From NCBI GenBank assembly GCA_030265305.1, contig JASAOG010000245.1, forward strand, positions 169,822 through 233,821: a stretch of 64,000 bases of DNA, in the 5' to 3' direction. The notes under the pieces are model-generated. The model was not told where the DNA came from, ran no database searches, and was given only the letters and a program-made list of their open reading frames with translations. A program made the translations under genes and the position numbers. Shown piece after piece: positions 1-61,640 of this stretch. The DNA is from Biomphalaria pfeifferi. Lineage: Eukaryota. Numbering within the stretch: the first letter of the stretch is position 1; the number at the start of each line of letters is the position of its first letter.

Positions 1-304
1 TACATTATTGCTAACAAAGGTTAGTGAATATTGTCTGACCTTAGTGACCTGTAGGAAGGACCATTTAGGACATACAGGTCTGCACTACGCGGCAGCGAGT
101 TATTGGTCTCCACTGCCCACAAGTTGCGACGTCACAGGCCAGTGTTGAGGCCTTCTATAACGGTCCCAATCCTACTCTCTTTTCTCGCTCAATCCCAATC
201 TCTCCTACCTACCTCTTTTATTCCCTCACCCAATCCCTCTCCCAATCATCTCACCTATTTCTTTCAATCTCACAATGCCCTCCACCCCTTCCATGTCTCA
301 AGCC

Positions 305-450
305 CTCTCCCACTACATTCCCTCCCGCCTCTCCCACTACATTCCCTCCCGCCTCTCCCACTACATTCCCTCCCGCCTCTCCCACTACTTTCCCTCCCGC
401 CTCTCCCACTACATTCCCTCCCGCCTCTCCCACTACATTCCCTCCTCTCA
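305..450. repeat. 24-bp tandem repeat (CTCTCCCACTACATTCCCTCCCGC), about 6 copies
   Basis: Direct reading shows contiguous near-identical 24-mers. ORFs 103..471 and 275..460 are translations of this repeat. Confidence 0.85.
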
Positions 451-1421
451 CATCACATAATCTATTTTTAAAAAAACAGCTACATCTAGTGCCACACGGA
501 AAATGGCCAGCTCCTCTACCACCAAAGCGAAAGCCACCTTGACATGCAATATATGTGGACGGGAGTGTCTCTCCAAAAATAGGGCTCCACAGCCATATGA
601 AAAAGTGTTCGAGATGAACCATAGTCGTTTCACGACTGAAGGAGGCCAATGAGTAGATCTAGTGCCCAAATCGCCAGGTCTCTACGGGCGGTTTAACTCT
701 TCCAGTCTTGCTACCAATCGGAGTTCATCTCGTGCCCAAAGCAAACCGATCATCCTAGCATATGACGACATTGATACCGAAGCTGATCTGGGCTCACGTA
801 TTGGAAATATAATCAACTGCGCATGCTCCAATTTCAAACAGGGATAGAAAAAAAAAAGAAAGAAAAAAAAATCTCAGTGATAAGCGGGAAATGGAACTAA
901 TCCAAAATGTTTACTTTTGCACCGGAAGGAGTCCGGAAATCGGAAGAAGTGCTGGTCCAATGTCCGAGAGGCTACAACCAATCGCGCCTATTGTGCACCA
1001 GATGGCGAGCAACTTGAGTTGAATTAGTTTATTTACAGACGGTGTGACTAGAATGTCCATTTTCCCGCGCTTTTGTAATCTGTCACGTGTGACGAAGGCT
1101 GCATCCATAAGTGTTCTAATTAAATTAACGAATATGAGTCAAAACCTTTTTATAAAATATTTTGTTTTCGCATATTCAAAATAACATTTTTTTAGCTATT
1201 AGTTTATGCATAAAACAAATCACCAAAATAATTTTAGGTATATTTGCTATTAATTTACGTACTTCAACTTACTAATGCCATGACATTGTGTATAATGAAA
1301 GCAAAAATTCTTATCACGACATTTACCATAGTCCAGATGATAAAAGTTTTTAAATATGTTGTAAACACATCTAGTTTCTCTCTATTTATTTCGGCTATTA
1401 TCGGAACGCCGTCTCCCCGAA

Positions 1422-1612
1422 CAGTGGCGTAGATAGGATGGGGGGAGAAGGGGGGAGAATTTGAAAATCCCCCCGTGCCTCCACTTGAGGGGGCTCCAAA
1501 TGAGTGACTTTTACATTAAATATTTAATATTACGCAAAATGCAGGGGCCCCCAAAGATGTCAAGCCCCCCCCCCGGGCCCCCAAATGAGGGCAAATTACT
1601 AGCTACGCCCCT
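1422..1612. mobile_element. hAT-like MITE, about 190 bp, family with CAGTGGCGTAGNTAGG terminal inverted repeats
   Basis: Left end is CAGTGGCGTAGATAGG and right end is ACTAGCTACGCCCCTG. A perfect 8-bp TSD, TCCCCGAA, flanks both ends (1414-1421 and 1613-1620). Two more copies are at 50933-51111 and 54559-54680. Confidence 0.8.
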
Positions 1613-2984
1613 GTCCCCGAAAAGAGAAGGTAAGTTTCTACAAGAACTAGATGCCATTCTAAATTCATACTATACTATTGTTAAAATTACTAGATTTGAC
1701 AGAAGTAAAAAAAAGCTATTGATCTTGAAAGCGGTTTCAATCGTATCACGTAAAAATGAACGTGCGAGCTGACACACTGATATTTTTTTTTCTATTGGAT
1801 TTCGCCTAATATCTAGATCTAGCCTTTTAAAGCTGTGCTGATAGGAATTGATATGAGTTTGTGTTCCCCCCCCCCCCCCTTTCACTTGATGAGTCTGATA
1901 TCCATTCAACTGTGACGACTTTCCGTGGCCTTCATGTCCCACGCCAAGCCGGAAGTTGCGTGCGTACCACGTGGCACATCTAGACCGGAAATAAAGATCA
2001 GCCATTACATTGCAGGAAGACAAGAAAAAACTAAAAGGTCAACTCCAAGGACTCAGAGAGGGAGAGGAGAGATGGAGGAGGGAGGAATGAGGACAAGGAG
2101 GGAGGCTGGATATCGAAGTGGAAATAGAGGAGTAAAATACCATCCAATGATCCATTGATTTGACAATTTAACTCCAAACCTTCTAATGTCAAAGAGAGAA
2201 GATTGCCTGCAAAGTATTTGCGAAGATTACTTTGAACAAATGTCACCTGCATTTTTAGCAGACGTGATCCTTTTGTGGGAAAACAAAAGCCTGGGGAGTG
2301 TGGGGGGGGGCGTTTTTGTTTGGAACAGCGCGTGCTACAAAGCAAATCTCAGCAAGTAATCTCTAGCCTACACATCTCACCCTATTAGTCAGTGGTTCTC
2401 AAACTTTGTCGGCGTAGGGGACCTGTATTCATATCACACACGAGTGATAGTGAACACGTCACCATCAAAGTCCGTCTTGAAAAATGCTTTTCGTTATTTT
2501 GGATCTTCCTTCAGTTTAAAGATAGTTACATCCGCAGGACGATGTGGGATGGCGGCGGGCAGGGTTCACACCTGAAACCATCGATACCATCAAACGACAG
2601 TTTAATTGACGGTCGTTGACTTGTAGCACCAAACTGCGGGTAGACAACTAAACCGCCGTATTACATTTTATAACGTATAAATCTTGAAATAACTTGAATT
2701 AACTTTTTTTGCGAACCAAACTAAACATAACTGTTATTATAGAATAGACAAATTTAACTTCAACTAAAATAAACTGATATTTAAACACATCTAAGTCACA
2801 ATAAAAGCACGTATATGCACTCTGGCATTCTGGAGTCGTCTGACGTACTCAACACAGCTTATGACATCGCCGCTTATCTTGCATCATTCTAAAGACTATC
2901 ATTAAATTGATGCTCTCTGTAATACTATACAGCTAACAATAAATATTCCCATTGGAAAAACACACACACACACACCATGATACC

Positions 2985-3070
2985 ATTGCGCATATCTTGT
3001 CTTATCTTATATAATACAGACGTAACCTCAAAAAAGAAGATGATTACGCCCTATGCGTCATGCATCTGGT
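2985..3070 (-). mobile_element. LINE-A 3' terminal fragment, inverted relative to the copy at 3335-3860
   Basis: Reverse complement of the conserved LINE-A tail ATGCATGACGCGTAGGACGTAATCATCTTC...GTATTATATAAGATAAG. Confidence 0.6.
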
Positions 3071-3334
3071 CATACATATGACACAATCAGGCAGCCACAG
3101 GTCATTTAATATCGAATCTCTGCAGCTTCAACTTGCATTCTAAGCAGAAATTTCGAGAGGCCGGTTCGCCTGTATCCACAGGCAATAATACGCCATCTCC
3201 ATCAGACGCCCTTTTTTTAAAAAACCATTAATGAAATTCAACCAGGGGACCATCATTTGTGATGCTGTTTTTGTAGGTGATAGCTAGGATCCTTTCATAG
3301 CGTCTCAACTCCATTGCTTGGATCGGCCTCTCTG

Positions 3335-3860
3335 TTATTTAACCTTGGTTAAGCCAATTATAGAATATGCATCCTCTGTTTGGGACCCTTCAACTTAAGA
3401 AAACTCAAGAAAACATTAAGAAACTGGAACAGACACAAAATAGAGCAGTGAGATTCATTACAAACAAACATTTGACTAGAGTAACACCTATAGTAAAATC
3501 ACTAAATTTAGAAAGCCTTCAGGACAGAAGACTCAAAAGTAATGTAGCAATTATACATAAAACACTGAACCATAATCTTCAAATACAATAACAAAATTTA
3601 TTAAAATACTCTGAAAGACACAAAGACAAAGGCACATTCCTTGTCCCCTATGCTAGGACAAATTTGTACAAATACTCCTTCTTCCCTAGTGCTATTAGAG
3701 CATGGAATGGGTTGCCTGAGCTAGCCAGGAAAACCAGTGACTTGGCAGAATTTAAGTCATTGGTTAATATGCATGACTAAATGCATGACGCGTAGGACGT
3801 AATCATCTTCGTTTTTGAAGTAACGTCTGTATTATATAAGATAAGAATAAGATAAAATAA
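3335..3860 (+). mobile_element. Non-LTR retrotransposon (LINE-A) 3' fragment ending in an (ATAAG)n tail
   Basis: Nearly identical to the 3' end of the reverse-transcriptase-bearing copy at 21355-21860. Encodes the ...RTNLYKYSFFPSAIRAWNGLPELA... C-terminus, followed by an ataag microsatellite. Confidence 0.8.
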
Positions 3861-4089
3861 GAGAGAGAGAGAGGAATGGAGAGATCATGTGAGGTGCCTC
3901 AACTGTCCAACAGACTAATGGCCAAGTGAATGGTAAGGAGTTGTATCGATACTTCCTTATTCTGTCTAACGGAGATATCGATACGTTTGCTATTTATGGA
4001 TATGAATTTGCCTACATTTTATAAAAGTCTCCGATTAAAAAAAAATAACATCTTTAAAAATGATTACAGAAAATCACAATTGTTGAAAA

Positions 4090-4460
4090 ATAGTCTCGCT
4101 CTCCCTTTCTCTCTCTCTCTCTCTTACGGTCTCTGTCACTTTATCACGAGCACTCTTTCTCGCCATCTTTTGCTGTCTCTCTCTCTCTCTCTCAGTATTT
4201 GTGTCTCTCACTATCTCTGTCTCTTTCTCTCTCCTTGTCTCTCTCTCACTACCTCTTTATATCTATCTGTATCATTTTTTCTTTCTTTCTTTCTCTGTCT
4301 CTCTCTGTCTGTGTCTTTCACTATCTCTGTCTCTCTATCTCTTTCCTTTTCTTTCTCTCTCACTACCTCTTTCTTTCTTTCTCTCACTATCTCTCTCTCT
4401 CTCTATCTATCTATATCATTCTTGCTGTCTCTCTCTCCCTCTCTTTCGCTAAATAATAAA
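4090..4460. repeat. (CT)n / CTCTCTGT low-complexity tract
   Basis: Pyrimidine microsatellite. ORFs 3930..4589, 4199..4456 and 4201..4452 are artefacts of it. Confidence 0.9.
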
Positions 4461-4795
4461 TTCTATATATCCCTCTCACTCACGAGACGCAGCACCCTTG
4501 ATCTTGTGATTGTCTTCCGCCTGGGAGAGTTAAGTTCAAATCTTTGTTTGAGGCTGGGGTGTAATCACCTCGACTGTCTACTCTTCTGAAATGCATCCCC
4601 AGTGATCACGTGACATGAACATCACAGACATGCTTGTTGATAAGATCAGTCCATGGACTCTTAGACTTGTGAAATATGTTTCTTTGATTTTACAGCCCCT
4701 TCTCTGTATCTTTAAGACATCGAAGTGTGCTCATTCAAGTAGAGATATTGTGTACATTGAAATAGGTGTTGTTGTTTTTAAATAAATGATATTCG

Positions 4796-4935
<140 letters not shown>

Positions 4936-5559
4936 GTGTTTTTTTTTGTTTGGTAATTTATGTAAGAAAATATTACACTTTACTTAGCTTTATTTTAAAT
5001 TTAATTATTCCTCAATTAATATGCACGTTTTAAAAATCTTTGAAAAAAAACAAATTTGAAATTGATGAGTTTTGAAAAAATGCATAATAAGCTAAGCAGG
5101 GGGGTGTACCGAAAACTGGAAAACATGTCAAGGAGTCTACGAGACAAAGTTTGGGAACCACTGGTCTAGAGCTATTAAAAATGAATTACATGATTGATCC
5201 AAAATAATTGATGCAATTTCACTCAAAGTAGTCACTGTTTTTAAATATATTTTAAAATTTTTATTAGTGTTTTCTTGGCTGACAATCATGAAGCTACTAA
5301 GGTAATTCAATAAACGACCTACATTGATACAATGTTTGATTACTTGCACCACGGTACAAGATGCAGTGCTGAGGATCTTATGTCCGCTTTTATGTTCCTT
5401 GATGTTGGTTTGTTTATTGTTAAAAGAAGCATAATCTCCCTTTTGTTGTGACCTCGTCAGAAGTTAGTTCCTTGCGATCCGTTTAATTTGATTGGTTGAA
5501 GCTGGGGGTGTAGAGACATGGGGTAATTAAATGGCGATGCAGTTATTCTTATTATATTA

Positions 5560-5978
5560 TTATAGCATTTATATAGCGCTACTTTCATGCTCAGAGTGCT
5601 TTTGGTCCAATCTCTTTTGTGGACCAGTGGTGGGGAGGGGGTATCTAGGAGTTGGTTTTTCGTGCTGCCTTTAGGCGCTCAGTAAACACAACTCTGCTCG
5701 AGTCGGTTGTCGAACCTCGAGCCTCCTTCTAGGTAGCCAAGCCAAGCCAAGTTCAAGTTCACGCTTCCCAGTTGGAAGCAGACGACATACACGTATACGT
5801 AGAAACGTATATACCAAGGAGAAAGAAAACGCTTAAATCCAATTCCAGGCTGCCGAACATTGGAAAGACTTAGGAGACGAAACCCGAAACTCAAAATCCC
5901 AGTCTTCGTCGAGATTTGAACACAGGACTCCAGGTTTAGATGCCAAGCGCCTAACCATTTACCCACTGCCCCACCTCC
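5560..5978 (-). mobile_element. tRNA-derived SINE, minus orientation (tRNA-like head 5870-5978)
   Basis: Reverse complement reads GGAGGTGGGGCAGTGGGTAAATGGTTAGGCGCTTGGCATCTAAACCTGGAGTCCTGTGTTCAAATCTCGACG. This has tRNA A-box and B-box-like motifs, as in the other SINE heads in the window. Confidence 0.6.
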
Positions 5979-6019
5979 AGGTGACCATGAAGCATCTTTT
6001 TATATTGCTTAGTCTAACA

Positions 6020-6834
6020 CAGTGGTTCTCAAACTATGGTGCGCGGACCCTTGTGGACGACCGTAGGATGAAAATTGAACACAAAATCAACAATGATGAA
6101 TATCAGACCTGTGACTTTATTTTGCGCATGAATATGAATATTTAGCCCATGAATATCAGTTTTACTTATATTACAAACCAATCAACGTCGATCTTTGAAT
6201 TTCTCTGCTGTATCACGCCATTGAAAGAAAAAAAAAAGTCCAAGCCTCGTCTTAAAGTTTCCAACCGACTACTAAAATAATCCCACGACACACCGACATC
6301 AGTCTAGTTATAAAGCGTACACATTTTATGAATAATTTTAAGTTATACAATGGTGCATAATATTATAATTACAATGGTGCCGGGTAATTCGTGTTTGCTA
6401 AATTGTTTTTTCGCACGCTCATCTAACCTTTAGATTATAGATCTCTACCGTACAATTGAAACAGCCACAAAGTGTCATATGTTTCAATGCGTTATCCAAT
6501 AAAAAGTTTGAAACCGCCATAACTTAAGCGTCATTTTGTAACAAATAGTAATTAACTAAAGTACGAACTTGTAGATTTTTGATAATGTGAAAGTAACGGC
6601 TACTAAAATCGTCAATAAATCATTAGCAATAATTTTTAGAGTTTAAAAAAAAAATCTAAATGCTCCATATATTATGTCAGAGTGAAAAGAAAACACGGAG
6701 GCTGAGTGTTTGATTAAATCCACGGCTTTACAAATACACGATTTGGGCAGACAATTCAGGCTGTGTAAGGGAGTCCGCTAACATCGTTTGGCTTGTATAG
6801 GGGTCTCCGAACTGGAAAAGTTTGAGAACCTCTG
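6020..6834. mobile_element. Non-autonomous hAT-like DNA element, about 815 bp, TIR CAGTGGTTCTCAAAC
   Basis: Left end is CAGTGGTTCTCAAACT and right end is GTTTGAGAACCTCTG. Flanking 8-mers are GTCTAACA and GTCTGGCA, matching 6 of 8. There is no ORF inside. The same TIR motif recurs at 2390, 5150-5164, 13890, 16510, 21945, 40378 and 54190-54350. Confidence 0.55.
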
Positions 6835-7736
6835 GTCTGGCAGACATTATGAAGTTTCTGACCCCAAACTATGTCCTTCTTTTAAAAAAACAGATGTATA
6901 GCCGGAGGGGGGGGGGGGGGACGGGGACTGCCGTGTGATCGACAGCGTTCCAACCATTTTGTCTATCTCCTGCCAATTACTTTCGCTATAAAAATGAGGG
7001 CGAAACGGCGCCTGTGTTGTCATTATAGCGCTTAAGGGTGCATCTCTGTTACGCACCTCAAATATACACCCCAAATATACACCAATGATTTATCACTCAC
7101 GTATATTTACGTTATCTCACATTCATCATACTTTAAAACATACATATTCATACCATATGTTCATGCACAAACATTAAGACTTTGCAACATACATTATAAC
7201 CTTGATACAATTATAACCTTGACCCCACTATAATCCTGAACCACTAAATCTCCATCCTTAGTCTTTACTATACCCTACCCTAGTTTTTGTTCAGCAGGCC
7301 CTAATACACACTTACAGAAGCTCATCAACAGCGCTCGGTAGAATTTGATAAAACTGGAACCGAACCATCAGCGAACGCTACCATTCATATCTTGAAACGG
7401 TTCTCTCTGTCTATTAAAGAATCGTGAGTCAACATTGACATGTACTTTTGTTCTTTCTTTGCTTTCTTTCATTGATTCGCATTGTCTTTTTTCAAGTTTT
7501 AGAGTGCATGGTGTGTTGTTACTGTGTTGTTGTTTTTTTGTTGGTGCATGTCTTTCCCATTGTCGCGATCAATGATGTATAAAAGTACACCGGGTTGTAA
7601 TTGTTTTATTTGTGGTAGCAGACTTTAGGACTTTTCTCGCTTGATCTCCCAGATTGTTAAAATGTCAGATGTGAGGGGTAGGTGTAGTGGAGTGTTTGTG
7701 CGTGTTTGGGTTGGCTAAACAGATTAAATTGGAAGT

Positions 7737-9215
7737 AGGAGATTGAAAGACAGAAAGATTGAGACCGAAAGATTAAAAGATAGAAAGATTGAGACTAAAA
7801 GATTGAAAGACAGAAAGATTGAAAGACAGAAAGATTGAAAGACAGATTGAAAGACAGATTGAAAGACAGACAGATTGAGGGAAAGAAAGATTGAGACACA
7901 GAAATATTGAAAGACAAAAAGATTAAGACTGAAAGATTGAAAGGCAGAAAGATTGAAAGACAAATTGAAAGACAGAAAGATTGAAAGACATATTGAAAGA
8001 CAGAAAGATTGATAGACAGATTGAAAGACAGAAAGATTGAGACTGAAAGATTAAAAGACAGAAACATTGAGACTGAAAGATTGAAAGACAGAAAGATGGA
8101 GACTGAAAGATTGAAAACAGAAAGATTGAGGGAAAGAAAGATTGAGAGACAGAAATATTGAAAGACAAAGATTAAGACTGAAAGATTGAAAGAGAAAGAT
8201 TGAGACTGAAATATTGAAAGACAGAAAGATTGAGACTGAAAGATTGAAAGACAGAAAGATAAGGATTGAAATATTGAAAAACAGATTGAAAGACAGAAAG
8301 ATGGAGACTGAAAGATTGAAAGACAGAAAGATGGAGACTGAAAGATTGTAAGAAAGATTGAGAGACAGAAATACTGAAAGAAAAATTGAAAGACAGAAAG
8401 ATTGAAAGACAGAAAGATTGAAAAACAGAAAGATTGAAAGACAGATTGAAAGACAGATTGAAAGACAGAAAGATTAAAAGACAGAAAGATTAAAAAACAG
8501 AAGGTGAAAGACAGATTGAAAGAGAGATTGAAAGACAGATTGAAAGACAGAAAGATTGAAAGACAGAAAGATTGAAAGACAGAAAGATTGAAAGACAGAA
8601 AGATTGAGGGAAAGAAAGATTGAGAGACAGAAATATTGAAAGACAGAAAGATTGAGACTGAAAGATTGAAAGACAGAAAGATGGAAACTGAAAGATTGAA
8701 AGACAGAAAGATTGAGGGAAAGAAAGATTGAGAGACAGAAATATTGAAAGACAGAAAGATTGAGACTGAAAGATTGAAAGACAGAAAGATGGAAACTGAA
8801 AGATTGAAAGACAGAAAGATTGAGGGAAAGAAAGATTGAGAGACAGAAAGATTGGGAGACAAAAATATTGAGAGACAGAAAGATTGAGATACAGAAAGAA
8901 TACAAGACAGAAAGAATAGGAGACAGAAAGATTGAGAGAAAGAAAGATTTAAAAAATCAAGATTGTGAAAAAGAAAGATTGAGGGAAAGAAAGATTATGA
9001 AACAGAAAGATTGAGAGAAAGAAATTTTAGGGAAAGAAATATTGAGAGACAGAAAGATTGAGAAAAATTAAGATTGTGAAAAAAAAGATTGAGAGAAAGA
9101 AAGATTGAGAGAAAGAAAGATTGAGAGAAAGAAAGATTGAGATGCAGAAATTTTGAGAGAAAGAAAGATTGAGTGAAAGATTGTGAAAAAGAAAGATTGA
9201 GAGAGACAAAAACGT
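7737..9215. repeat. About 1.5 kb satellite of 10-12-bp purine-rich units (AGAAAGATTGA / GAAAGACAGAA)
   Basis: Hundreds of degenerate tandem units. The strand is strongly skewed: the plus strand is almost pure A/G plus T. ORFs 7795..8862 (355 aa), 7724..7963, 8474..8905, 8820..9014 and 9027..9209 are artefacts. Confidence 0.95.
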
Positions 9216-10099
9216 GTATTTCTAATAGTTAAGAAGCGGGTTGCACTAAGTTGAACTTGTCTAACGACTCATCTCCTTATATTTCTACAGACAATGCCAA
9301 CTAAAAGTGTAATACTTTGTTCAAAAAGAAGTCCATACGTGTTTTCTAATTAGAATATAAAACATCTATAACGGTTTAGTTGGACTAGCAGTCTGGAGCT
9401 ACAACCCAACGACCGTGATACAAAAAGCGAGGGGGGAGGCGGGCAAAGTCGTGACATTATTTATAATGAAAGCTATTATAAAGTTTGTTAAAACCCCTAT
9501 AACTTTGTTCAGTGATCCATCTTCCTATCTCCTTTAAAGAAATAAAAAGGGGGGGGGGGGAGGGGATATATTGGGCATGGGCATAGCCAGGATTTTTTTT
9601 CCCGGGGGCGGGGGGGGGGGGTGGGTGGGGAGGGATTTTTTCTCCCCCCCCCGCCCCCCCCCCCCCCCCCAAACAAAATATCTATATGTATGTATGTGTG
9701 TGTGTGTACATAATCTTTATTACATTCTGACCCTTCATTCTTTCAGAAGACGTTTATTGTTCCCTAGAAAAGGCTCTTCGTGGAGTTAGCCATTACCAGA
9801 AAGGGTTCTGGGGGAGCGATAGGAGCTCCCTCAGCGCGGGGCGAAGCCCCGCCGCCAAGCACTATTTCTGGTTTTGAAAGCCAACAAAATACATATTCTG
9901 AGGTATCTACTGTGCATTTTCCTGCTATTAGAAGGTTTATTTAAAAAAAAACTATGTGCTATTCTTACTGACTTAGACCCTCCCGCGCCATTCGGCGCAT
10001 TTGCCGTCAAACTGTTTCCACAAAAATCTGTCACTGTTAATGTCTGAAGCCTCTTTCCACCTGCTCTGAGGATCTCCATGAATGTGTGGCGCCAAGTTG

Positions 10100-10235
10100 T
10101 ACTAGAATGTCATCGCAATTCTTATTAAGCGTAATTCATTTTGTCGGAGAACATGTCCCGCAAACCTCATGCGACGCTCTGTCACAATCTTACTATGGGG
10201 TCAACTCCCAGTTCGGCATAGGATTTCCTTGATTT
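10100..10235 (-). mobile_element. LINE 3' tail fragment
   Basis: The minus-strand translation ...RRMRFAGHVLRQNELRLIRIAMTF* resembles the conserved C-terminus of non-LTR retrotransposon ORF2. Confidence 0.4.
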
Positions 10236-10379
10236 AGACCCGATCTCTAAAATCTGTCTTAGCCATCTTTGTTGAGCCACATTTAGTGTTTTTCAATTTC
10301 GGCACATATGACTATTCACTGCACTCTATTAATGGAGCCCCGCCACTGGTAGAAATATGTAACCTCTCTTGAATACGCT

Positions 10380-11345
10380 CTTGGAATTAGGTGACTGTAG
10401 TTTGCATTAGATTTGATATCGAAAAGGGAGATTTTATCGTCAAAATCATCTGTTGGGGGTTTAAAACTAAAAAATCTCTGGAGTTTTTTGGTTTTTTAAA
10501 ATTCAAAACCCCATTTAACTACGGTAATAGAATTTAGTAACTGTAGTTTGCTTTAGAATAATATTGAAGATATAGGTTTTCCATCTCAAAATGCTCTGTA
10601 GGGGGATCTTAAACTCAAAACCATCTGGAGGGGTTTTAAACTTTTAAAAAAGCCATCTGTAGGAGAGGGGTTTAAACTCAAACCCCCAACTGGATTGGCT
10701 ACGCTCAAATAATTTTAGTTTGTAATTTGCTTTTTTTATATTGAAGAGGTATTTTTTAGCATCAAAACCATCTGAAGGGGGGTTTAAACTCATTACCCCT
10801 TTTGGCAACGCTCGTAGTATATTGAGTGCGTAATTTGCTGTGTTTTTTTTTTACATTGAAAATGTGTTTTTTAGCTACAAACCCCGCAAGCGGGGAGTTT
10901 AAACTCAAAACCCCTTTGACTACACTCATAGAATTTTGAGTGTATAATTTGCTTTGTTTTTAGTATTAAAGAGGTATTTTTTTTACCTTAAAACCCCGCT
11001 GAAAAGGGGGGGGGGGGCATTAAACTCAAAACCCATTTACCTACGCTCATAACATTTTGAGTGCGTAATTCGTTTTTTTTTTATATTGAAAAGGGGGTTT
11101 ATCGTGAATTTTGGAGGGGGGTTAAAAATCAAAATCCTTAACTGTGCTCGTAAAATTTGGGGGATTGTCGTTTGCATTTTTTTTTTGTTTTGTGTTATAG
11201 AAGAGGAGAATTTAACTGCGAAAACCCCTGGTAGGGGGGGTTTTAAACTCAAACCCCCCTGGTAGGGGGTCTTAAACTCAAACCCCCCTGATAGGGGGTT
11301 TTAAACTTAACCCCCCCCCCCCCCGGTAGGGATTTTAAACTCAAA
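10380..11345. repeat. About 115-120-bp unit satellite, about 8 units, ending in 30-bp GGGGGTTTTAAACTCAAACCCCCCTGGTA sub-repeats
   Basis: Recurrent ...GTAATTTGCTTTGTTTTT...ATTGAAGAGGTATTTTTTAGC...GGGGGTTTAAACTCAAAACCCCTTTGACTACGCTCATAG blocks. ORF 11037..11252 is an artefact. Confidence 0.85.
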
Positions 11346-11709
11346 ACCTTGTTTGCTGTGCTAGGGCAAGTGACAGTTTAGTCTTAAAATCTCACCTAAA
11401 ATAAACAAAATCAAAGCAAAAAATCAGTCACTAAATTCCGATCCCCTTCCCCGCGGGGGGGGGGGGGGGGGAATTTCATTTCGGGGGAGGGGGGTTGAAC
11501 CCCCCCCCCCCCGGCTACGCCCATGATATCGGGTATCAGCAAAAACATCTCAACTCTAGTCAAATCTCGTCCAACCTAATGTACATCGGGATTTGAACCA
11601 CTTACCCCCAAGCCACGATTAATTAATAAACCCATAACCTCAGGACAGAGAACAAAGAAAATCGTTCATGAATATCAATGTCGTGCCCCAAATCCCTCTA
11701 TTCAATCAT

Positions 11710-11785
11710 AGTAAGTCAGTAAGTCAGACAGTCAGTCAGTCAGACAATCAGTCAGCCAGCCAGTCAGGCAGTCAGTCAGTCAGGG
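11710..11785. repeat. (CAGT)n / CAGTCAGT microsatellite
   Basis: Direct reading. Confidence 0.9.
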
Positions 11786-11869
11786 TTGATTCACCCCTTT
11801 AGTGGAAGCAGTCAACATCTGTATTACGGTGACACATGGTTGATGGCCACCAATAGTACGTATACTTAC

Positions 11870-12092
11870 GTCCAAGAACTCGGGCCTTGCGTTGTACACC
11901 ACGTGTCTCTGGCCAAGGTCGTGTAACAAGGTGACCACTTTGTCCTCGGAGTCCATTCTGGCCACCACTTTTTCCACCGCCCCCATCACTCTCAGCACGT
12001 GAGACCTTAGCGCAGTGCTGGCCCTGAGTTCTTCGGCTGTCTTGTCTCGGAAATCCATAAAGGTTCCTTTAACATCGGGGTCCTCCAGCAGT
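11870..12092 (-). CDS. Globin central exon (exon 2): B12.2 to G7.0, 223 bp, neuroglobin-like
   Basis: The minus-strand translation is (G)LLEDPDVKGTFMDFRDKTAEELRASTALRSHVLRVMGAVEKVVARMDSEDKVVTLLHDLGQRHVVYNARPEFLD. It shows the globin CD1 Phe (KGTFMDF), the distal His E7 (SHVLRVM) and the proximal His F8 (LGQRH). The exon is preceded by the acceptor ...ttttcag with a phase-2 intron and followed by the donor GAC|gtaagtata with a phase-0 intron. Its 223-bp length equals the canonical vertebrate globin exon 2. Confidence 0.85.
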
Positions 12093-12169
12093 CTGAAAAA
12101 CCAGTAAGAAAAAAATGCTTCAAAAGTGGGGGGTATACATTTATATTTAACTCTTACAACTGACAAATA

Positions 12170-12830
12170 AGCTTGGACAGAGGTCATGCTTTAATAACAT
12201 ACTATTGGAGAACCAGAAAAGTACCACACCAGAGCAGTAACACATCAGAAGAGTACCACAGCAGTACCACAACAGAGCAGTACCACACAGAGCAGTACCA
12301 AACCACACTTACATATGAGCTTGGACAGAGGTCATGCCTTAAAAACATACAATTGCAGAACCAGAAAAGTACCACGCAAGAGGAGTACCACATCAGAGAA
12401 GTACCGCAGCAGTATCACATCAGAGCAGTACGTACCACACAAGAACAGTTGCACACCAGAGAAGTACCAAACCACACCTACATATGAGCTAGGACAGAGC
12501 TCATGCCTTAATAACATACCAAGCAATACCAGAAAAGTACCACGATAGAACAGTATCACACCAAAGATGTACCATAGCAGTACAACATCGAAGCGGTACC
12601 ACACCAGAGCAGTACCATATCACAGCAATATCACATTGGAGCAGTACCGTGCCAGAAAATGACAACACCAGAGTATGACCACACCAGAGCAGTACCAGAA
12701 AAGTACCGCATCAAAGCAGAACCAGAGCAGTACCACACCAGAGCAGTACTAGAACAGTACCACACCATAGCATCATTAAAGCCGTACCACACCTAAGCAG
12801 TACCACGCCAATACCGAACCAATCCACATC
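12170..12830. repeat. Degenerate tandem repeat of CAGAGCAGTACCACAC units inside globin intron 1
   Basis: Repeated (gag)cagtaccaca units. ORFs 12173..12487, 12202..12393, 12315..12548 and 12332..12604 are artefacts. Confidence 0.8.
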
Positions 12831-13051
12831 GACACTTTGCTTCTAACACAAATGTTGATGAATCATTTATTTCTATTTTCAGTTCTTTCCAGCTCTTATC
12901 ACTGTAGACAACAACATGCTCTCGTGAAAGAGGCGCTTCATCCACTCAAAATGGTAGACCTTGGAAACTAATCATTATTTGTTCTCAATCCAAACCACAC
13001 TTTACCGCTGCATAGCATTCGATTATTCTTTCTCATCTTGAAAACTTTTAG

Positions 13052-13314
13052 CAGGGCCGGCCATAGGTAATTGGAGGCCCTTGGCGAAGCGCATAAGGAG
13101 GCCCGGCATTATATAATTGGAAACCCTAGGCGGATTGAATTTGGTGGCCCCCCAAATGAAATAGAAAAATTAAAAAATAAACAGCGAAAAAATAAAATTA
13201 CGCAACAATTTATTTAAAACCTCTAAAAAGATTGTTTTGAGTCCTGTGCGAGGCCCCCATCAATCGGAGGCCCTATACTGCTGCCTAGTTCGCCTATGCC
13301 AAAGGCCGGCCCTG
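13052..13314. mobile_element. hAT-like MITE, 263 bp, TIR CAGGGCCGGCC
   Basis: CAGGGCCGGCC at the left end and GGCCGGCCCTG at the right end. Flanks are CTTTTAG and CTCTTAG, matching 6 of 7. Same family as 23365-24029 and 55295-55944. Confidence 0.6.
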
Positions 13315-14408
13315 CTCTTAGCTGTATCGATGCAGTATCATTGTTAGCTTTTTTTTTTTTTAAATAAAGGATTCGCTTTTTTTTTTTCTTTAATTAAATC
13401 TGTTTAGAGTGTTTTACCCTTATTTGTTAAAAACTAAAACCAAGTAATGCTCTACTCCCTCCTTGCTACTCCGCCCATGGCAGGTCATCTGATAGTCCAG
13501 ACGACAATGGAAATCGAGCTAAACCCCTCTCTTTATGATATCAACGAGGAACTTTTTGCGCGGATTTATCTGCGGAAAGGATGACACGAAATAAAAACGC
13601 TTTCCTAAGTCAACAAATGTCACGGCTTGTAATTACCATCGTTACCCGGGTGTGATGTCATCGATACAAAATTGCCAAGTCAACACTAGTAAAAGGGGAG
13701 GGGGGGGGGAAGGGCTTATTGTTGTGTTGTATGGCTGAACAGTAAATTACCAATCAAAAACATTTACCAATGATAGCCAATAGAATTAGACAATTAAAAG
13801 GCATTCCAGGCTTTTACACGTAGAAAAATTGGCTGGTTACTATTTTTCTAATAGACCATTTGATGTCATATAAGGATTAGCTAAATCAGCGGTTCTCAAC
13901 CTTTTTTGTTCCGTAACCCCATAATATAATTTCCAACATGGCAGCGACCCTAGTGAATAGTTGTAAGAAAGGTGTATTTTTATGAAAATCTGCTTGAATA
14001 GTTGATTATAAAAATTAAATTTTTCGATTTCATAAAAGAAAAAAAGTAGACGTTGAAATGTCTAAAATATGATGTCAGATTTTCAATATCTTTTCTAGTT
14101 TACGAGATCTAAACGGGACGGACGGACGGACCGACAGACAGACCACACCCAAAAATATTCCCATTTATAAATATGACAATTTAAAAATATGACAATTTAC
14201 AAGCATGCGTACGTATAAACATGACAGTTTATAAACATGACAATCTATGAAACTTAGACATGTATACGAATGACAACATATAGGTGGCATAGGCCTAACA
14301 ATGGATAAACATGGCAGTGTATAAACATGGCCTATGTATTAACATCTCTATACAACTTATAAACAAGGCCGATTATAAACATGACAATTTATAAACATAA
14401 GTACATAC

Positions 14409-14650
14409 CCCATAAACATGACAACTCCAACTCGCTCGATGTCTTTCTTGATAATCTCCCATGAGGCCAAGATGATTTCTCTTGTCTCAGCGGTCAGCAC
14501 CGGCTTGACTTCCGGCACGCCTCGCATGGCGCCAGAGGACATCTCCTCGCCCTCCTGATTGCACAGGTACACCATCCTTGTGTTCTGATCCTTCATTTTC
14601 TCTGTCAGCCCTAACCTGTCCGTAATCTCTCTGGAACAGCTTAGACCCAT
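14409..14650 (-). CDS. Globin exon 1 (from the first true ATG through B12.2)
   Basis: The ATG at 14650-14648 sits in a perfect Kozak context, gtgACCATGGgt. The translation is MGLSCSREITDRLGLTEKMKDQNTRMVYLCNQEGEEMSSGAMRGVPEVKPVLTAETREIILASWEIIKKDIERVGVVMFMG. It contains an A/B-helix-like LTAETREIILASWEII...DIERVGVVMF. The donor GG|gtatgta at 14409/14408 is phase 2 and joins in frame to exon 2, giving GGA = Gly. The ORF-track start at 14680 is a GTG, not an ATG. An alternative start at the ATG at 14542 (MSSGAMRG...) cannot be excluded. Confidence 0.7.
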
Positions 14651-14686
14651 GGTCACTATAAGAGAGGTCAACAGCCGCACGAGAAA

Positions 14687-14925
14687 CTAGGTCATGGGTC
14701 AAATGCCGCACGATTATCCAGGTCAAGGGTCAAAGTCGACTCGATTAAACTAGGTCATGTGTCAAAGGATGGGCGGCTTGCTAGGTCAATGGATCTAATG
14801 CCACTCGTTTTATCTAGGTCATGTGCCAAAGGAGGCGCGATTTACTAGGTTAACGGTCAAATGCCAAACGATTACCTAGGTCATGGGTCAAATGCCGCCA
14901 CACGATTAAGTAGGTCACTGTAAAC
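14687..14925. promoter_or_regulatory. Eight tandem copies of a 31-32-bp unit, each carrying AGGTCAnGGGTCA (DR1-type nuclear-receptor half-site pairs), 37-275 bp upstream of the globin ATG
   Basis: Units start at 14687, 14718, 14750, 14781, 14814, 14845, 14876 and 14910. Examples are CTAGGTCATGGGTCAAATGCCGCACGATTA and CCAGGTCAAGGGTCAAAG. There is a GGGCGG box at 14771. Confidence 0.5.
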
Positions 14926-20159: not shown

Positions 20160-21860
20160 ATATTTTATTTTTTTTACATAACATAATACATAATGATAAT
20201 GAAACTAAAGCAAACATCCTAAACAAATACTTTGCATCAGCATTCTCAGCCCCAGGAGACAAAGACATATTACTGAATTTGAACCAAGTAGACAACATAG
20301 AAGATATAGTAGTACAAGAAAATGGAATTCAAAAACTATTAGCCAACACCAAACCAAATAAAGCGTCTGGACCTGATGGTATTCCAGCTAGATTACTCAA
20401 AGAACTCAGCAATGAGCTAGTCCCAGTGTTCAAAATACTCTTTCAGGCTTCACTTAACCAGGGCAGAGTACCAAAGGACTGGAAAGAAGCTAATGTCACC
20501 CCCCCCCCCTATTTAAAAAAGGAGAAAAATCTGACCCAGGAAACTACAGACCAGCATCACTTACCAGCATCACATGAAAAATCCTAGAACACATAATATG
20601 TAGCAACATCATAAACCCCTTAGACAAACAAAATGTCCTCACACCATACCAACATGGCTTTAGGAAATATAGATCATGTGATCATGTGAAACACAACTAA
20701 GAGGACTAATTGATGATTTTTCTAAAGGTTTAGATAATAGTGAACAAATAGATGCTATCTTACTAGATTTTTCTAAGGCTTTTGACAAAGTTCACCACCA
20801 TAGTTTGCTTTAAAATATGTCGGCATTAATGGTCCACTGCATCAGTGGATTAAAGATTTTCTGATAGGGAGAGAACAAACTGTAATAATAAATGGCTTTA
20901 AATCAACACCGATAACAGTAAACTCAGGTGTACATCAAGGAACAGTCTTAGGTCCACTACTATTTTTAATTTACATAAATGATTTACCAAATTGCATTAC
21001 TCCAGGAACAAAAGTCAGATTATTTGCAGACGATTGCATAATATATAGAACAATAAAAACAACACAAGGCACAGATATTTTACAAAGAGAATTAGATGAA
21101 TTACAGAAATGGGAATCAAATTGGAGCATGTCTTTCCACCCAGAAAAATGTCAATTGTTAAGAGTAACTTATCTTATTCATGGCAAACCAGTAACACAGA
21201 CTAAAAACGCAAAATACCTAGATGTTATAATAAATGAAAAACTGTCATGGAATCCACATATTGATGAAACTATAAAAAAATCAAACAAAGCATTAGGATT
21301 TATTCACAGAAATTTCTATAAATCAAATAAGAACATAAAACTAAAATGTTATTTAACCTTGGTTAGGCCAATAATAGAATATGCATCGTCCTTTTGGGAC
21401 CCCTCACCTCAAGAAAACATTAAGAAACTGGAACAGACACAAAATAGAGCAGTGAGATTCATAACAAATGAATATTCACATTTGACTAGAGTAACACCTA
21501 TAGTAAAATCACTAAATTTAGAAAGCCTTCAGGAAAGAAGACTCAAAAGTAAAGTAGCAATTATACATAAAACACTGAACCATAATCTTCAAATACAAAA
21601 ACAAAATTTAATTAAATACTCTGAAAGACACAAAGAAAAAGGCACATTCCTCGTCCCATATGCTAGGACAAATTTGTACAAATACTCCTTCTTCCCTAGT
21701 GCTATTAGAGCATGGAATGGGTTGCCTGAGCTAGCCAGGAAAACCAGTGATTTGGCAGAATTTAAGTTATTGGTTAATATGCAAGACTAAATGCATGACG
21801 CGTAGGACGTAATCATCTTCTTTTTTGAAGTAACGTCAGTATTATATAAGATAAGATAAG
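20160..21860 (+). mobile_element. LINE-A non-LTR retrotransposon, reverse-transcriptase region plus 3' end, decayed by frameshifts and stops
   Basis: ORF 20075..20587 carries the RT domain-0 motif KASGPDGIPARLLKE and is followed by GNYRPISL. LFADDCIIY, the F/YADD RT motif, lies near 21030. ORF 21128..21790 ends with ...RTNLYKYSFFPSAIRAWNGLPELA. The element terminates in an (ATAAG)n tail at about 21860. Confidence 0.8.
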
Positions 21861-21984
21861 ATAAGACCATCCTGGCGTAAAAAAAAGTGTTAAAACCCAC
21901 ATGGTCTGTCTAGACTTTACGATATTTGTGGAGCGTCTACTACAGGGGTTCTCAACCTGTGGGTCGTGTTCAAACTTTAACAAG

Positions 21985-25972: not shown

Positions 25973-28661
25973 TACCCAAAAGAGGACAGGAACTTTGTCT
26001 ACAAAAATTGACACCACCCCAAGCAAATGTAATCGTGGAACTGTGAACATGTCTTCTTGCATGCGCGTGTCACACCCCTGACGCTAGATCCGCCACTGAC
26101 GCCGAGGGGCACACTGTTTGACATAAACACGCGAGGACAGCAGACATATTAGCACGTGACTATGTGGGCGATTATGCTGTCGTCCCGATGCTTTGGCTAT
26201 TGATCTTAGGACCTCCGAGGCCTACATGTAATACTTTGTGGATAGCCGACCTGCGTGTCAGACCTGGTTGTTGTTTCTTTAATATGAGTAGTCACGTGAT
26301 GAGTTGCAATCGAGACTAAAAGAGAAACAAAACATTTTTACGTTTTACCTAACATCGGAGCAGTGAGAAACTCGAACGCCAACAAAATAATGTATGAGAA
26401 TCGCTTATTAAGTTAATTGCCATTTAATTAGTTATCATGTTAGATCTCCACTGCAGTTTACATAATAATAATACGGCTTGTCAAATGTGCATCCCGCGGC
26501 CTTTTTGAGTGACCTCCAGCTGTCCCGTTCTGAAGCTGCATGCAACCAGGTGCTCTCTTACATGTCAGTTAAAGCAAGTTGGTCTTTGAGGCGTTTCCGT
26601 GGTGCACCTGTGTTACGTCGACCACCTTTCAGCTCACCAAAAAAAAAAAGACTGCTATTGGCATACGTTCGTCCGCCATACGGGATACGTGCCCTACCCA
26701 GCCTAACTGTCGGATCATAAGAAGTCCCTCAATAATGTCCATACCGGCGTTCGCAAATATACTATGCAGTGTACTTTAATAACTACAATTTATTTACAAA
26801 TACATTTTTTTTGGACAATCAAGAGTGTGCGAACATAACGTAGTTATCTCCCCTTTGACCCGACGCCTGCTAAGAAATTAGTTTCTTTAAAGTCTCCAGT
26901 TCTTATTTAAGTATCTCTCATGTCCACTGACTAATTATATAATTGAAATGGACACGGGAACTCATAGTCCGGCTTTAGCACACTTCCGATTTTGAAATTG
27001 TCAATAATCTAATTAGTCTAACAAATTGATATTTGTCGGCGCCTTAACCTAGTCAGGTAATTAAGGGGACACAATTTCCACATGACATCTTGATCTTTGC
27101 AATGTACAAACTTTCCCATTAAATGGGTCATGTCCCTGACCAATATAGCTTATATAAATGCATAGAAACACTGGGGTAATACATCCGTATCTTATCTTAT
27201 AAATTACAGACGTTACTTTAAAAGAGAAGATACGCGTATCCTTGTCTTAATTATTTTTTTAGAGATTTAAAATCTGCTAAGTCATTGATTTTCCAGGCTG
27301 ATTCAAGCAACCCGTTCCATGTTCCAAAGGCACTTTGAATAAGTAGCTCTTGTGTGAATGTGGCCTAGAATATGGAATAAAAAAATGCCTCTATTTTTTT
27401 GTGTCTTTCTGAGTGTTTCATTAAATTTTTTTTTCTATTTGAAAATTACAGTTTAGTGTTTTATGTATTATGACTACTTGACTTTTTAGTCTTCTCTCCT
27501 GAAGTGTCTCTAAGTTTAGTGATTTTTTTTAGTGATTTTACTAATGGTGTTACTCTAGCGGCTAGTTCAAAGAAAATATTCGTTTGTTTTAAATCCCACT
27601 ACTGTATCTGTTTTAGTTTTTTTTTTCTCCGTAAGTTGTGGGGTACCAAACATATTCTTATATTTGTCTAACCAAAATTAAATAGCTTTTTAGTTTTATC
27701 TTATTGTTGAATTTGTAAAAAAAACAAAAAAACTTTAATGCTTTGTTTATTATTATGGAGGTTTCATGATAACTTCACATTTATTATAATACCGAGCTAA
27801 AGTTTTTTAGTCTTTATAACTGGGTTAAATGATTTATAAACTCCTTCATCCCACTGTCGGTCAGAGTGTTACAAGATCCGCTGTCGTCATCGAGAAGTTC
27901 ATAGCAGTCTAATTCATAAAACGCTGGTTATGAGTGTGTATGCGTTTCTTGTGTGAATGTTGTTCGTATTTGCATCTATATTGTTATTGTTACAGTAGTT
28001 ACGCTTAAGTTGTCAATAGTAGTCAAACTGAATTTCCGTTTGATTGGATCAATAAAAATTATCTTATCTTATCTTAACCTTAGGGTGTTGATTCCCATTT
28101 CTGTAATTCATCTCATCTCTTTCTTTTCTCTTCTGTGAGTGTGATGTCCAGTTTCTATCTCTTTTAACTTGGACTTTTTCTTGCTTTACTAGAAACCATA
28201 GCAACGCTGGCTATGACGAGTAATTGTAAAACATAAACCCAGAAGTCTGGAATAAAAAAAAAAACATAACATAGAATGTATGTCCCAAAGTGTTTTTACG
28301 AACCTTTTTTTACGTACGTTGAACATTTTTTTAAAAATGGTTGGATGTGTTCTTTCATGCTGTCACAGCAACGTCGTTTGGCTGGGGGGGGGGGGGGGTT
28401 AACGGGTCACGGAAGTATTTAATGGATAGGAAAGAATAAAAATTAGAGGCAGGGAAATGATTGGGAAGAGAGATGAATCAATGAAAAACATGGCTAAAAA
28501 TAAATTGGGGGGGGGGGGGGAACTGAGGTGCAGAGCGTGGAAAATGTATATTTAAAAAAAACAACTAATTTTAAAAAAGCTAAAAACCCAGCCACCTTAC
28601 AATGATAATATTAGAGCAGTAATTTTCTTCCTTTATTTACACATTAGTGTGTGCGTGTGAG

Positions 28662-60744: not shown

Positions 60745-61640
60745 TACATGTGACAAAAGTCAGATTATGTGCAGACGATTGCATAATATATAGAACAATA
60801 AAAACAATACAAGACACAGAAATTTTACAAAGAGAATTAGATGAATTACAGAAATGGGAATCAAATTGGAGCATGTCTTTCCACCCAGAAAAATGTCAGT
60901 TTTTAAGAGTAACAAAAAACTAAAACAAATTAATTCCCCTTATCTTATTCATGGTAAACCAGTAACACAGGCTAAAAACGCAAAATACCTAGGTGTTATA
61001 ATAAATGAAAAACTGTCATGGAATCCACATATTGATGAAACTATAAAAAAAAATCAAACAAAGCATTAGGATTTATTAAAAGAAATTTCTATAAATCAAA
61101 TAAGAACATAAAACTAAAATGTTATTTATCCTTGGTTAGGCCAATATAAAACATGTATTCTCCGTTTGGGACCCCCAAACTCAAGAAAACATTAGAGACT
61201 GGATCAGACACAAAATAGAGCAGTGAGATTCATAACAGACGAATATTCACATTTGACTAGAGTAACACCTTTAGTAAAATCATTAAATTTAGAAAGCCTT
61301 CTGGATAGAAGACTTAAAAGTAAAGTAGCAAATTATAAATTTATAAATAAAACACTGAACCATAATCTTCAAATACAAAATCAAATAAAAATACTCAGAA
61401 AGTTACAAAGATAAAGGCACATTCCTCGTCCCATATACTAGGACAAATTTGTACAAATGCTCCTTCTTCCCTAGCGCTATTGGAGCATGGAATGGGTTGC
61501 CTGAACTAGCCTTAAAAACCAGTGACTTTGCGGAGTTTAGGTCATTTGTTAATATGCATGACTAAATGCATGACGCGTAGGACGTAATCATCTTCTTTTT
61601 TGAAGGTCCGTATTATATAAGATAAGATACGATTAGGTAT
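60745..61640 (+). mobile_element. LINE-A 3' copy, about 0.9 kb, frameshifted
   Basis: Collinear with 21010-21860 (...FADDCIIYRTIKT...MGIKLEHVFPPRKM...) and ends in ATAAGATA simple repeats. ORFs 60854..61069 and 61223..61414 are remnants. Confidence 0.85.

Follow-up and report, generated by a model that had tools for sequence, protein, structure and literature searches.

A globin gene in Biomphalaria pfeifferi, probably of the globin X lineage, with a third exon most likely past the edge of the sequenced window

The question raised by this locus is whether a globin gene with two clear exons and no visible third is a relic or an intact gene cut by the edge of the sequence under study, and to which globin lineage it belongs. 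The DNA analysed, referred to here as the window, is a stretch of 64,000 nucleotides from the snail Biomphalaria pfeifferi (NCBI GenBank assembly GCA_030265305.1, contig JASAOG010000245.1, positions 169,822 to 233,821 of the forward strand). Snails of the genus Biomphalaria serve as intermediate hosts of Schistosoma mansoni. An earlier note, made from the letters of the sequence, had described on the minus strand a neuroglobin-like gene with a possible N-terminal acylation motif and a missing third exon. The locus is very probably an intact three-exon Biomphalaria gene for a 198-residue globin of clade III, the globin X (GbX) lineage, whose exon 3 lies past the window edge.

Gene anatomy and annotated Biomphalaria counterparts

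Coding exon 1 was located by sequence, translation and tblastn at 14409..14650 of the minus strand (242 bp). It begins with Met1, breaks off after two bases of the Gly81 codon, and codes for an N-terminal extension of ~50 residues, helix A and the part of helix B that ends at B12. The start ATG at 14650 stands in an ACCATGG context and the 3′ boundary of the exon reads GG/GTATGT at 14409. Intron 1 (12093..14408, minus strand) is of the GT..AG type and, at 2316 bp and rich in tandem repeats of 16 to 168 bp, agrees with the length of about 2.3 kb and the repeat content given earlier. Its 3′ end consists of a long polypyrimidine tract followed by CAG. It is a phase 2 intron within Gly81, ahead of Leu-Leu, at a position homologous to B12.2. 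Coding exon 2 (11870..12092, minus strand, 223 bp) takes up the remaining base of the Gly81 codon, ends with Asp155 and covers helices B12 to G6. It is followed after ...EFLD by intron 2, in phase 0 and at G7.0, with a GTAAGT donor at 11869-11864. The 5′ 11.9 kb of this intron fill 1..11869 of the minus strand, and the intron runs past the window edge. Joined, the two exons form an open frame of 155 codons. The two exons, their in-frame join and the intron phases of the earlier note are thus confirmed base for base.

The 155-residue partial product scores 40.1 bits against the Pfam Globin family (PF00042), with a gathering cut-off of 22 and E = 6e-10. The residues named earlier as CD1-Phe, E7-His and F8-His are Phe92 (12061-12059), His112 (12001-11999) and His144 (11905-11903). 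They align to the matching residues of cytoglobin and plant haemoglobin and are invariant in 32 homologues. The Pfam score and the protein identity described below are far above chance, and the region consists of exons 1 and 2 of a real globin gene.

The product is 100% identical to KAI8787758.1, a GenBank entry named ‘neuroglobin, partial’ from Biomphalaria glabrata. It is also identical to residues 1-155 of RefSeq XP_055878640.1, a B. glabrata protein of 198 residues named ‘neuroglobin-like’. The window product shares a 90% cluster with XP_055878640.1 and XP_055878641.1, and the UniProt entry is A0A2C9JQU3. The gene is already annotated in RefSeq and already known. Orthologues of 197-202 residues are present in Lymnaea, Aplysia, Arion, Candidula, Bradybaena and Elysia.

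Two B. glabrata loci were used for comparison at the DNA level. L001 is the locus in the chromosome assembly GCA_947242115.1 and L002 is that of KAI8787758.1 in GCA_025434165.1; the L002 sequence, taken with a 10 kb flank, ends short of exon 3. The RefSeq gene of B. glabrata shares residues 1-155, the exon boundaries and a collinear locus with the window, and differs in the length of intron 1 (2316 bp in the window, 3561 bp in L001 and 3293 bp in L002). Across 465 coding bases, the window differs from L001 at six positions and from L002 at eight, all of them synonymous, with no non-synonymous change. The introns are about 83-93% identical to L001 and L002 by blastn, a divergence of about 10%. 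Exon changes that are only synonymous, set against such intron divergence, point therefore to continuing purifying selection. Over non-coding DNA as a whole, the window has about 83-93% identity to the two B. glabrata assemblies, against 88-96% between L001 and L002, a distance that marks it as a divergent haplotype or strain or as a congener.

Probable position of the third exon

The earlier failure to find exon 3 downstream of exon 2 was extended to the whole 64-kb window. A six-frame tblastn search of the window (word size 2, E up to 100), queried with the complete Lymnaea protein and with three peptides of exon 3, returned chance matches only.

The intact arrangement can be read in L001, whose coding exons occupy 10001-10242, 13804-14026 and 27632-27763. 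Intron 2 of this locus is 13,605 bp long and ends in ...ttcgttcacag, with an AG/CTG acceptor. Exon 3 comprises 132 bp and 43 codons (LVGPQFNTAIQ...KETMVM), covers helices G7 to H and is unbroken by introns up to the stop codon. Blocks of blastn similarity show the window intron 2 to be collinear with L001 from window position 11736 to position 1. The last block pairs L001 26111-26566 with window 446-1 and runs off the window edge, and L001 26567-29100 has no blastn counterpart within the 64-kb window. Exon 3 of L001 starts 1066 bp past the point aligned with window position 1 (L001 26566).

By this comparison, exon 3 most likely lies about 1.07 kb beyond window position 1, and intron 2 of the window haplotype would measure ~12.9 kb if collinearity continues. 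Exon 3 seems to be missing because an intron of ~13 kb, filled with repeats, extends past the window edge. Of the two explanations offered in the earlier note, an intron 2 of more than 4 kb is therefore favoured, and truncation by satellite insertions is not supported, the intron being collinear with the reference up to the window edge.

Introns of this size are normal for the gene. In Lymnaea the two introns of the orthologue are about 13 kb and 14.4 kb, and in Aplysia 13.5 kb and 25.5 kb; both orthologues have three exons with the same split residues. The B12.2 and G7.0 introns, ancestral in globins, split the gene at matching residues in Lymnaea, Aplysia and Mytilus. GenBank also holds partial models of the gene from three Biomphalaria assemblies, KAI8787758.1, KAK6997653.1 and KAK0042285.1. 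Two of the three stop at exon 2, the other consists of exon 2 alone, and all miss the terminal 132-bp exon.

N-terminal extension, globin lineage and proposed role

The first codons of exon 1 (14633..14650, minus strand) read MGLSCS and contain a predicted N-myristoylation site at Gly2 and a candidate S-palmitoylation site at Cys5. As a pattern, MGLSCSR matches both PROSITE PS00008 and MGxxxS/T by regular expression. The N-terminus is retained in nine heterobranch gastropod orthologues as MG-[LIQT]-[ST]-C-S, followed by ...K-x-K-x-x-x-K...YLCN-x-EGEE, and the ~35 residues after the motif are also conserved in them. In an alignment of ten gastropod homologues, all have Cys5, and conservation of Gly2, Ser4 and Ser6 reaches 90% or more. 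A start with MG is found in ~90% of the 32 family members.

Met37 is not conserved; some heterobranch orthologues have Gln, Leu or Thr in its place. Relative to L001 and L002, third-position changes occur at codons 16, 31 and 32, all upstream of Met37. The conserved Met1-Gly2 and extension, the variable Met37 and the synonymous upstream changes together place the translation start at 14650, at the first ATG preferred by the earlier note. The extension is under purifying selection. The alternative start at Met37 (MSSGAMRG, ATG 14542) is rejected for the lack of conservation of this residue.

Similar N-termini have been described in other globins. The Platynereis globin gb-IVB begins with MGGVCSS, with a Cys at position 5, and is predicted to be dually acylated (PMC7771090, Additional file 6). 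In zebrafish GbX, a neuronal protein, both Gly2 and Cys3 are needed for targeting to the plasma membrane (PMC3176823). The GbX and GbX-like (GbXL) proteins of arthropods are acylated and expressed in the brain (PMC7457136). The likeness to a globin X acylation motif noted earlier holds, in that both patterns fit and the protein groups with the globin X clade; the motif is genuine, yet it is a known hallmark of this lineage.

A profile search places the protein in a protostome-wide family with members in molluscs, an annelid, crustaceans, hemimetabolous insects, chelicerates and a tardigrade. The automated names within the family are inconsistent and include neuroglobin-like, non-symbiotic haemoglobin-like, cytoglobin-2 and glob1. 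The full snail protein was compared by BLASTP with the reference set of Song et al. 2020 (PMC7771090). References of clade III (globin X) gave 107-159 bits at 36-46% identity. Lower scores were obtained with clade II, the GbX-like references (47-83 bits, 23-31%), the Sp-gb references (55-74 bits, 23-30%), the clade V neuroglobin of Pinctada (60 bits, 26%), the clade IV reference (58.5 bits, 25%) and the clade I references (43-52 bits, 20-31%). By neighbour-joining, the snail family and the clade III references were monophyletic in 191 of 200 bootstraps. The homologues recovered by the profile search include Lottia 72750, 73010 and 118731 and Octopus XP_014786974, which are assigned to clade "three" in the published set (PMC7771090, Additional file 6). 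Song et al. 2020 equated this bilaterian clade with globin X (PMC7771090). The BLAST scores, the tree and the published clades of the homologues all point to placement of the snail protein in bilaterian clade III. Solved neuroglobins (E = 1.4e-7) rank under cytoglobin and plant haemoglobins, and the name "neuroglobin-like", also used in the earlier note, is a naming artefact for this lineage.

The structure of the gene does not follow this placement in every respect. Prothmann et al. 2020 (PMC7457136) noted that GbX of arthropods and vertebrates has a third intron at E10.2, which distinguishes it from GbX-like genes. Exon 2 of the snail gene is uninterrupted from B12 to G6 and contains no such central intron. 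The introns had been called textbook, a description that suits globins generally and fails for the globin X lineage, where E10.2 is expected. The intron is also absent from the clade III genes of Lymnaea, Aplysia, Haliotis, Mytilus and the annelid Dimorphilus; the exons of Aplysia, Haliotis and Dimorphilus were located by degenerate-pattern search and sequence reading. The homologue of phylloxera (Daktulosphaira) has four coding exons with a central split at HALR/VMAF. The gene is filed in clade III by its sequence, and the gene-structure criterion fails in every spiralian member examined. The absence of E10.2, an intron described as ancestral for GbX, is probably a loss in Spiralia, and adds a modest piece of evidence on whether introns were lost or gained during globin evolution.

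The length of 223 bp reported for exon 2 is exact, while the likeness to exon 2 of beta-globin is a coincidence of the heterobranch subgroup. The CD region of this subgroup is one residue shorter in the alignment than that of other homologues. Exon 2 of Mytilus would be 226 bp, a length derived from tblastn residue boundaries. A second clade III paralogue occurs in other freshwater heterobranch snails; in Lymnaea and Physella it has a start of MG[AN]QTSK that carries the myristoylation motif and no N-terminal Cys. A Bulinus protein is related to this paralogue but differs at its N-terminus. By neighbour-joining, the paralogue of Lymnaea falls with the Haliotis and Mytilus type and not with the MGLSCS type. 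It is possible, though doubtful, that the heterobranch MGLSCS-type gene forms a derived spiralian branch of globin X, with the supposedly ancestral E10.2 missing from all sampled molluscs and annelids, the palmitoylation Cys moved from position 3 to 5 and a Cys-less paralogue in other freshwater heterobranch snails. If so, this would hint at subfunctionalisation into stably and reversibly membrane-bound forms.

Three other explanations of the locus were weighed. The gene could be a pseudogene in which expansion of repeats or satellites, or a rearrangement, removed exon 3 and left a two-exon relic. The absence of this exon from all 64 kb, the repeat-rich intron 2 and the partial GenBank models of three assemblies, which likewise end at exon 2, would agree with such a history, and it is nevertheless most improbable. 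The intron remains collinear with the intact L001 to the window edge, with the exon of L001 merely 1066 bp further; exons 1 and 2 have diverged synonymously only (6 and 8 of 465 nt) against ~10% in the introns; and the splice sites and start context are intact. A full 198-residue model with an identical N-terminal 155 residues exists in RefSeq and UniProt, and the partial models are readily put down to gene callers, which easily miss a 132-bp exon behind a 13-kb intron. The window edge is the best explanation of the apparent truncation.

The remaining two explanations concern the identity of the protein. A true neuroglobin orthologue of clade V, that is a soluble cytoplasmic neuronal globin which may start at Met37 (MSSGAMRG), is scarcely credible. 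Although the NCBI names are "neuroglobin" and "neuroglobin-like", and His-E7, His-F8 and a hexacoordinate-like fold are present, the clade V neuroglobin of Pinctada reaches 60 bits with 26% identical residues, where clade III goes up to 159 bits and 46%. The protein also stands apart from neuroglobin in the tree, solved neuroglobins rank below cytoglobin and plant haemoglobins, Met37 varies where Met1-Gly2 and the extension are conserved, and neuroglobin is reported to be lost in most gastropods (PMC8136487). Membership of the globin X-like genes of clade II, rather than of the globin X lineage, is very unlikely. The low clade II scores and the separate clade in the tree stand against it, as does the published assignment of the Lottia and Octopus homologues to clade III. 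The arthropod relatives of the snail protein are moreover of the GbX type, beginning with MGN (myristoylation only) and with none from Holometabola, and the phylloxera relative carries an intron at E10. What speaks for GbXL is the gene structure: GbXL genes have three exons split at B12.2/G7.0 and mostly both acylation motifs, with E10.2 as the extra intron of GbX (PMC7457136), and the snail gene combines a dual acylation motif with the lack of E10.2. This lack is shared by all spiralian clade III genes checked and fits a loss of the intron within the lineage.

Several points weigh against an intact clade III gene. The window ends before exon 3, which is unseen in this haplotype. The E10.2 intron, used to separate GbX from GbX-like genes (PMC7457136), is lacking. 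The tree was built without vertebrate GbX, and the link from clade III to vertebrate GbX is taken from published phylogenies. Splice junctions and the transcription start are predicted from genomic sequence, the site of expression is proposed by analogy, and acylation, membrane localisation and hexacoordination are predictions.

The intact clade III gene shares features with several known globins. Globin X, with zebrafish GbX as the prototype (Roesner 2005; Blank 2011, PMC3176823), likewise has an extension that begins with MG and contains a nearby Cys. It also has His-E7, His-F8 and introns at B12.2 and G7.0 in common with the snail gene, and sequence conservation is high. The snail gene differs from it in the candidate palmitoyl Cys at 5, not 3, and in the lack of the E10.2 intron. 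Vertebrate GbX is said to contain an H10.0 intron as well, where exon 3 of the snail gene is unbroken. The snail protein resembles neuroglobin as a 3-on-3 globin with distal and proximal His and a similar predicted fold (TM about 0.82-0.87), and differs from it in an identity of 26% to the molluscan protein and in that the two are not sister clades in the tree. Vertebrate neuroglobin has an E11.0 intron, and none is present at this position in the snail gene. GbXL of clade II has the same three-exon B12.2/G7.0 structure and dual N-terminal acylation motif (PMC7457136), with 23-31% identity and a separate clade in the tree. The three-exon B12.2/G7.0 structure without E10.2 is common to many globins and is insufficient alone for GbXL membership. 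GLB-26 and GLB-12 of Caenorhabditis elegans (PMC3520999, PMC4686822) are likewise globins tethered to membranes by N-terminal lipidation, with a role in redox signalling and not in oxygen transport. The same tethering principle is ascribed to a myristoylated haemoglobin-like globin of Carcinus maenas, as cited in PMC7457136. These three proteins belong to globin lineages other than that of the snail protein, and no orthology is claimed.

In the AlphaFold model, residues 1-41 are disordered, helix A starts at residue 54 and the pLDDT exceeds 90 over residues ~50-198. About 50 residues thus precede the A-helix, and not ~40 as first estimated. A 3-on-3 alpha-helical fold is predicted, with a Foldseek TM of 0.88 and a root-mean-square deviation of 1.3-1.5 Å to cytoglobin (1.5 Å for 1ut0). 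The solved folds closest to the predicted model are hexacoordinate globins, namely cytoglobin, a tardigrade globin, the nerve globin of Spisula and barley haemoglobin, which gives a hint of hexacoordination.

In the most likely mechanism, translation would begin at the first ATG, the initiator Met would be cleaved off and Gly2 would be myristoylated co-translationally. Cys5 would be palmitoylated, and the disordered linker of ~50 residues would tie a canonical 3-on-3 globin domain to membranes on their cytoplasmic side. The haem would be bound by His-F8 as the proximal and His-E7 as the distal ligand, with hexacoordination probable. By analogy, the protein may act in membrane-associated redox chemistry, such as protection against reactive oxygen species, handling of nitrite or nitric oxide, or redox signalling, and not in bulk oxygen transport. 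On the same globin X analogy, the site of action would probably be neural tissue.

Since 2011-2012, globins of the globin X type that carry a lipid anchor have been known from across the animal kingdom. A survey in which B. glabrata is named reports them in each of the ten molluscs that it assayed. The gene is real, probably intact and already known, and matters little beyond housekeeping. It does illustrate that a terminal exon of 132 bp after a repeat-rich intron of 13 kb escapes a window-limited reading as well as three GenBank models, and that automated naming errs in calling members of this lineage "neuroglobin". A "neuroglobin-like" transcript, which may or may not come from the present gene, is among the genes down-regulated on infection in B. 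pfeifferi (PMC5685644).

Repeats and neighbouring features

Intron 1 is filled by tandem arrays, and intron 2 holds dispersed repeats as well, as found by Tandem Repeats Finder (TRF) and blastn. Proceeding from exon 2 towards the window start, TRF located within intron 2 an (AGTC/CAGT)n microsatellite at 11710-11783, a 29-bp G5/C5 repeat at 11221-11317 and two copies of a 114-bp unit at 10731-10961. Tracts of G/C homopolymer lie at 11455-11471 and 9604-9670. The CAGT microsatellite and homopolymer tracts described earlier are therefore present, and the "120-bp" satellite corresponds to the 114-bp unit. No 11-bp satellite was found by TRF; a nearby array at 7740-9204 has a period of 8, 12 and 16 bp.

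This array is a purine-rich tandem repeat of 1.4 kb; its unit of 16 bp is AGATTGAAAGACAGAA, with shorter periods of 8 and 12 as well. The strongest strand asymmetry in the window is due to this array (over 8001-10000, a GC skew of 0.37 and an AT skew of 0.35), and a spurious open reading frame (ORF) of 355 residues passes through it on the minus strand. Near the window start, at 304-445, intron 2 also contains 5.9 copies of a 24-bp tandem repeat, CCTCTCCCACTACATTCCCTCCCG, with 98% matches by TRF. The satellites belong to the usual content of the intron, and the sequence blocks on either side of them can still be aligned to the reference haplotypes.

Directly 5′ of the ATG, a 31/64-bp tandem repeat was detected by TRF at 14666..14917 of the minus strand, in the 5′ untranslated region or proximal promoter. 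The region 5′ of the ATG can be aligned to either B. glabrata haplotype at about 89-92%. The motif TGACCYnTGACCT, a direct repeat of the nuclear-receptor half-site with 1-nt spacing (DR1-like), has four of its five window matches in 14666-14917 against 0.26 expected, a count inflated by tandem duplication. As pure speculation, the DR1-like array at the ATG could mean control of the gene by a nuclear receptor. At a greater distance upstream, a TATAAA occupies 15223-15218 and a CACGTG 15251-15246.

A dispersed repeat of ~300 bp occurs in three window copies, at 3544-3853, 21554-21862 and 61341-61634. It is inserted in intron 1 of the B. glabrata globin gene (L001 11573-11865; L002 11590-11872) and not in intron 1 of the window, and its presence in this intron is an insertion polymorphism. 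The ORFs in or near two of the window copies (3930-4589 and 21128-21790; 219-220 residues) gave no Pfam match.

Elsewhere in the window, an unbroken ORF of 871 residues on the plus strand at 30694-33309 encodes a complete Major Vault Protein (MVP), with Pfam matches to Vault, Vault_2/3/4 and MVP_shoulder and E values as low as 1e-60. The ORF occupies the part of the window with the highest GC content (0.45). The presence of a single-exon MVP beside intron-rich genes suggests a retrogene or an unusually compact gene.

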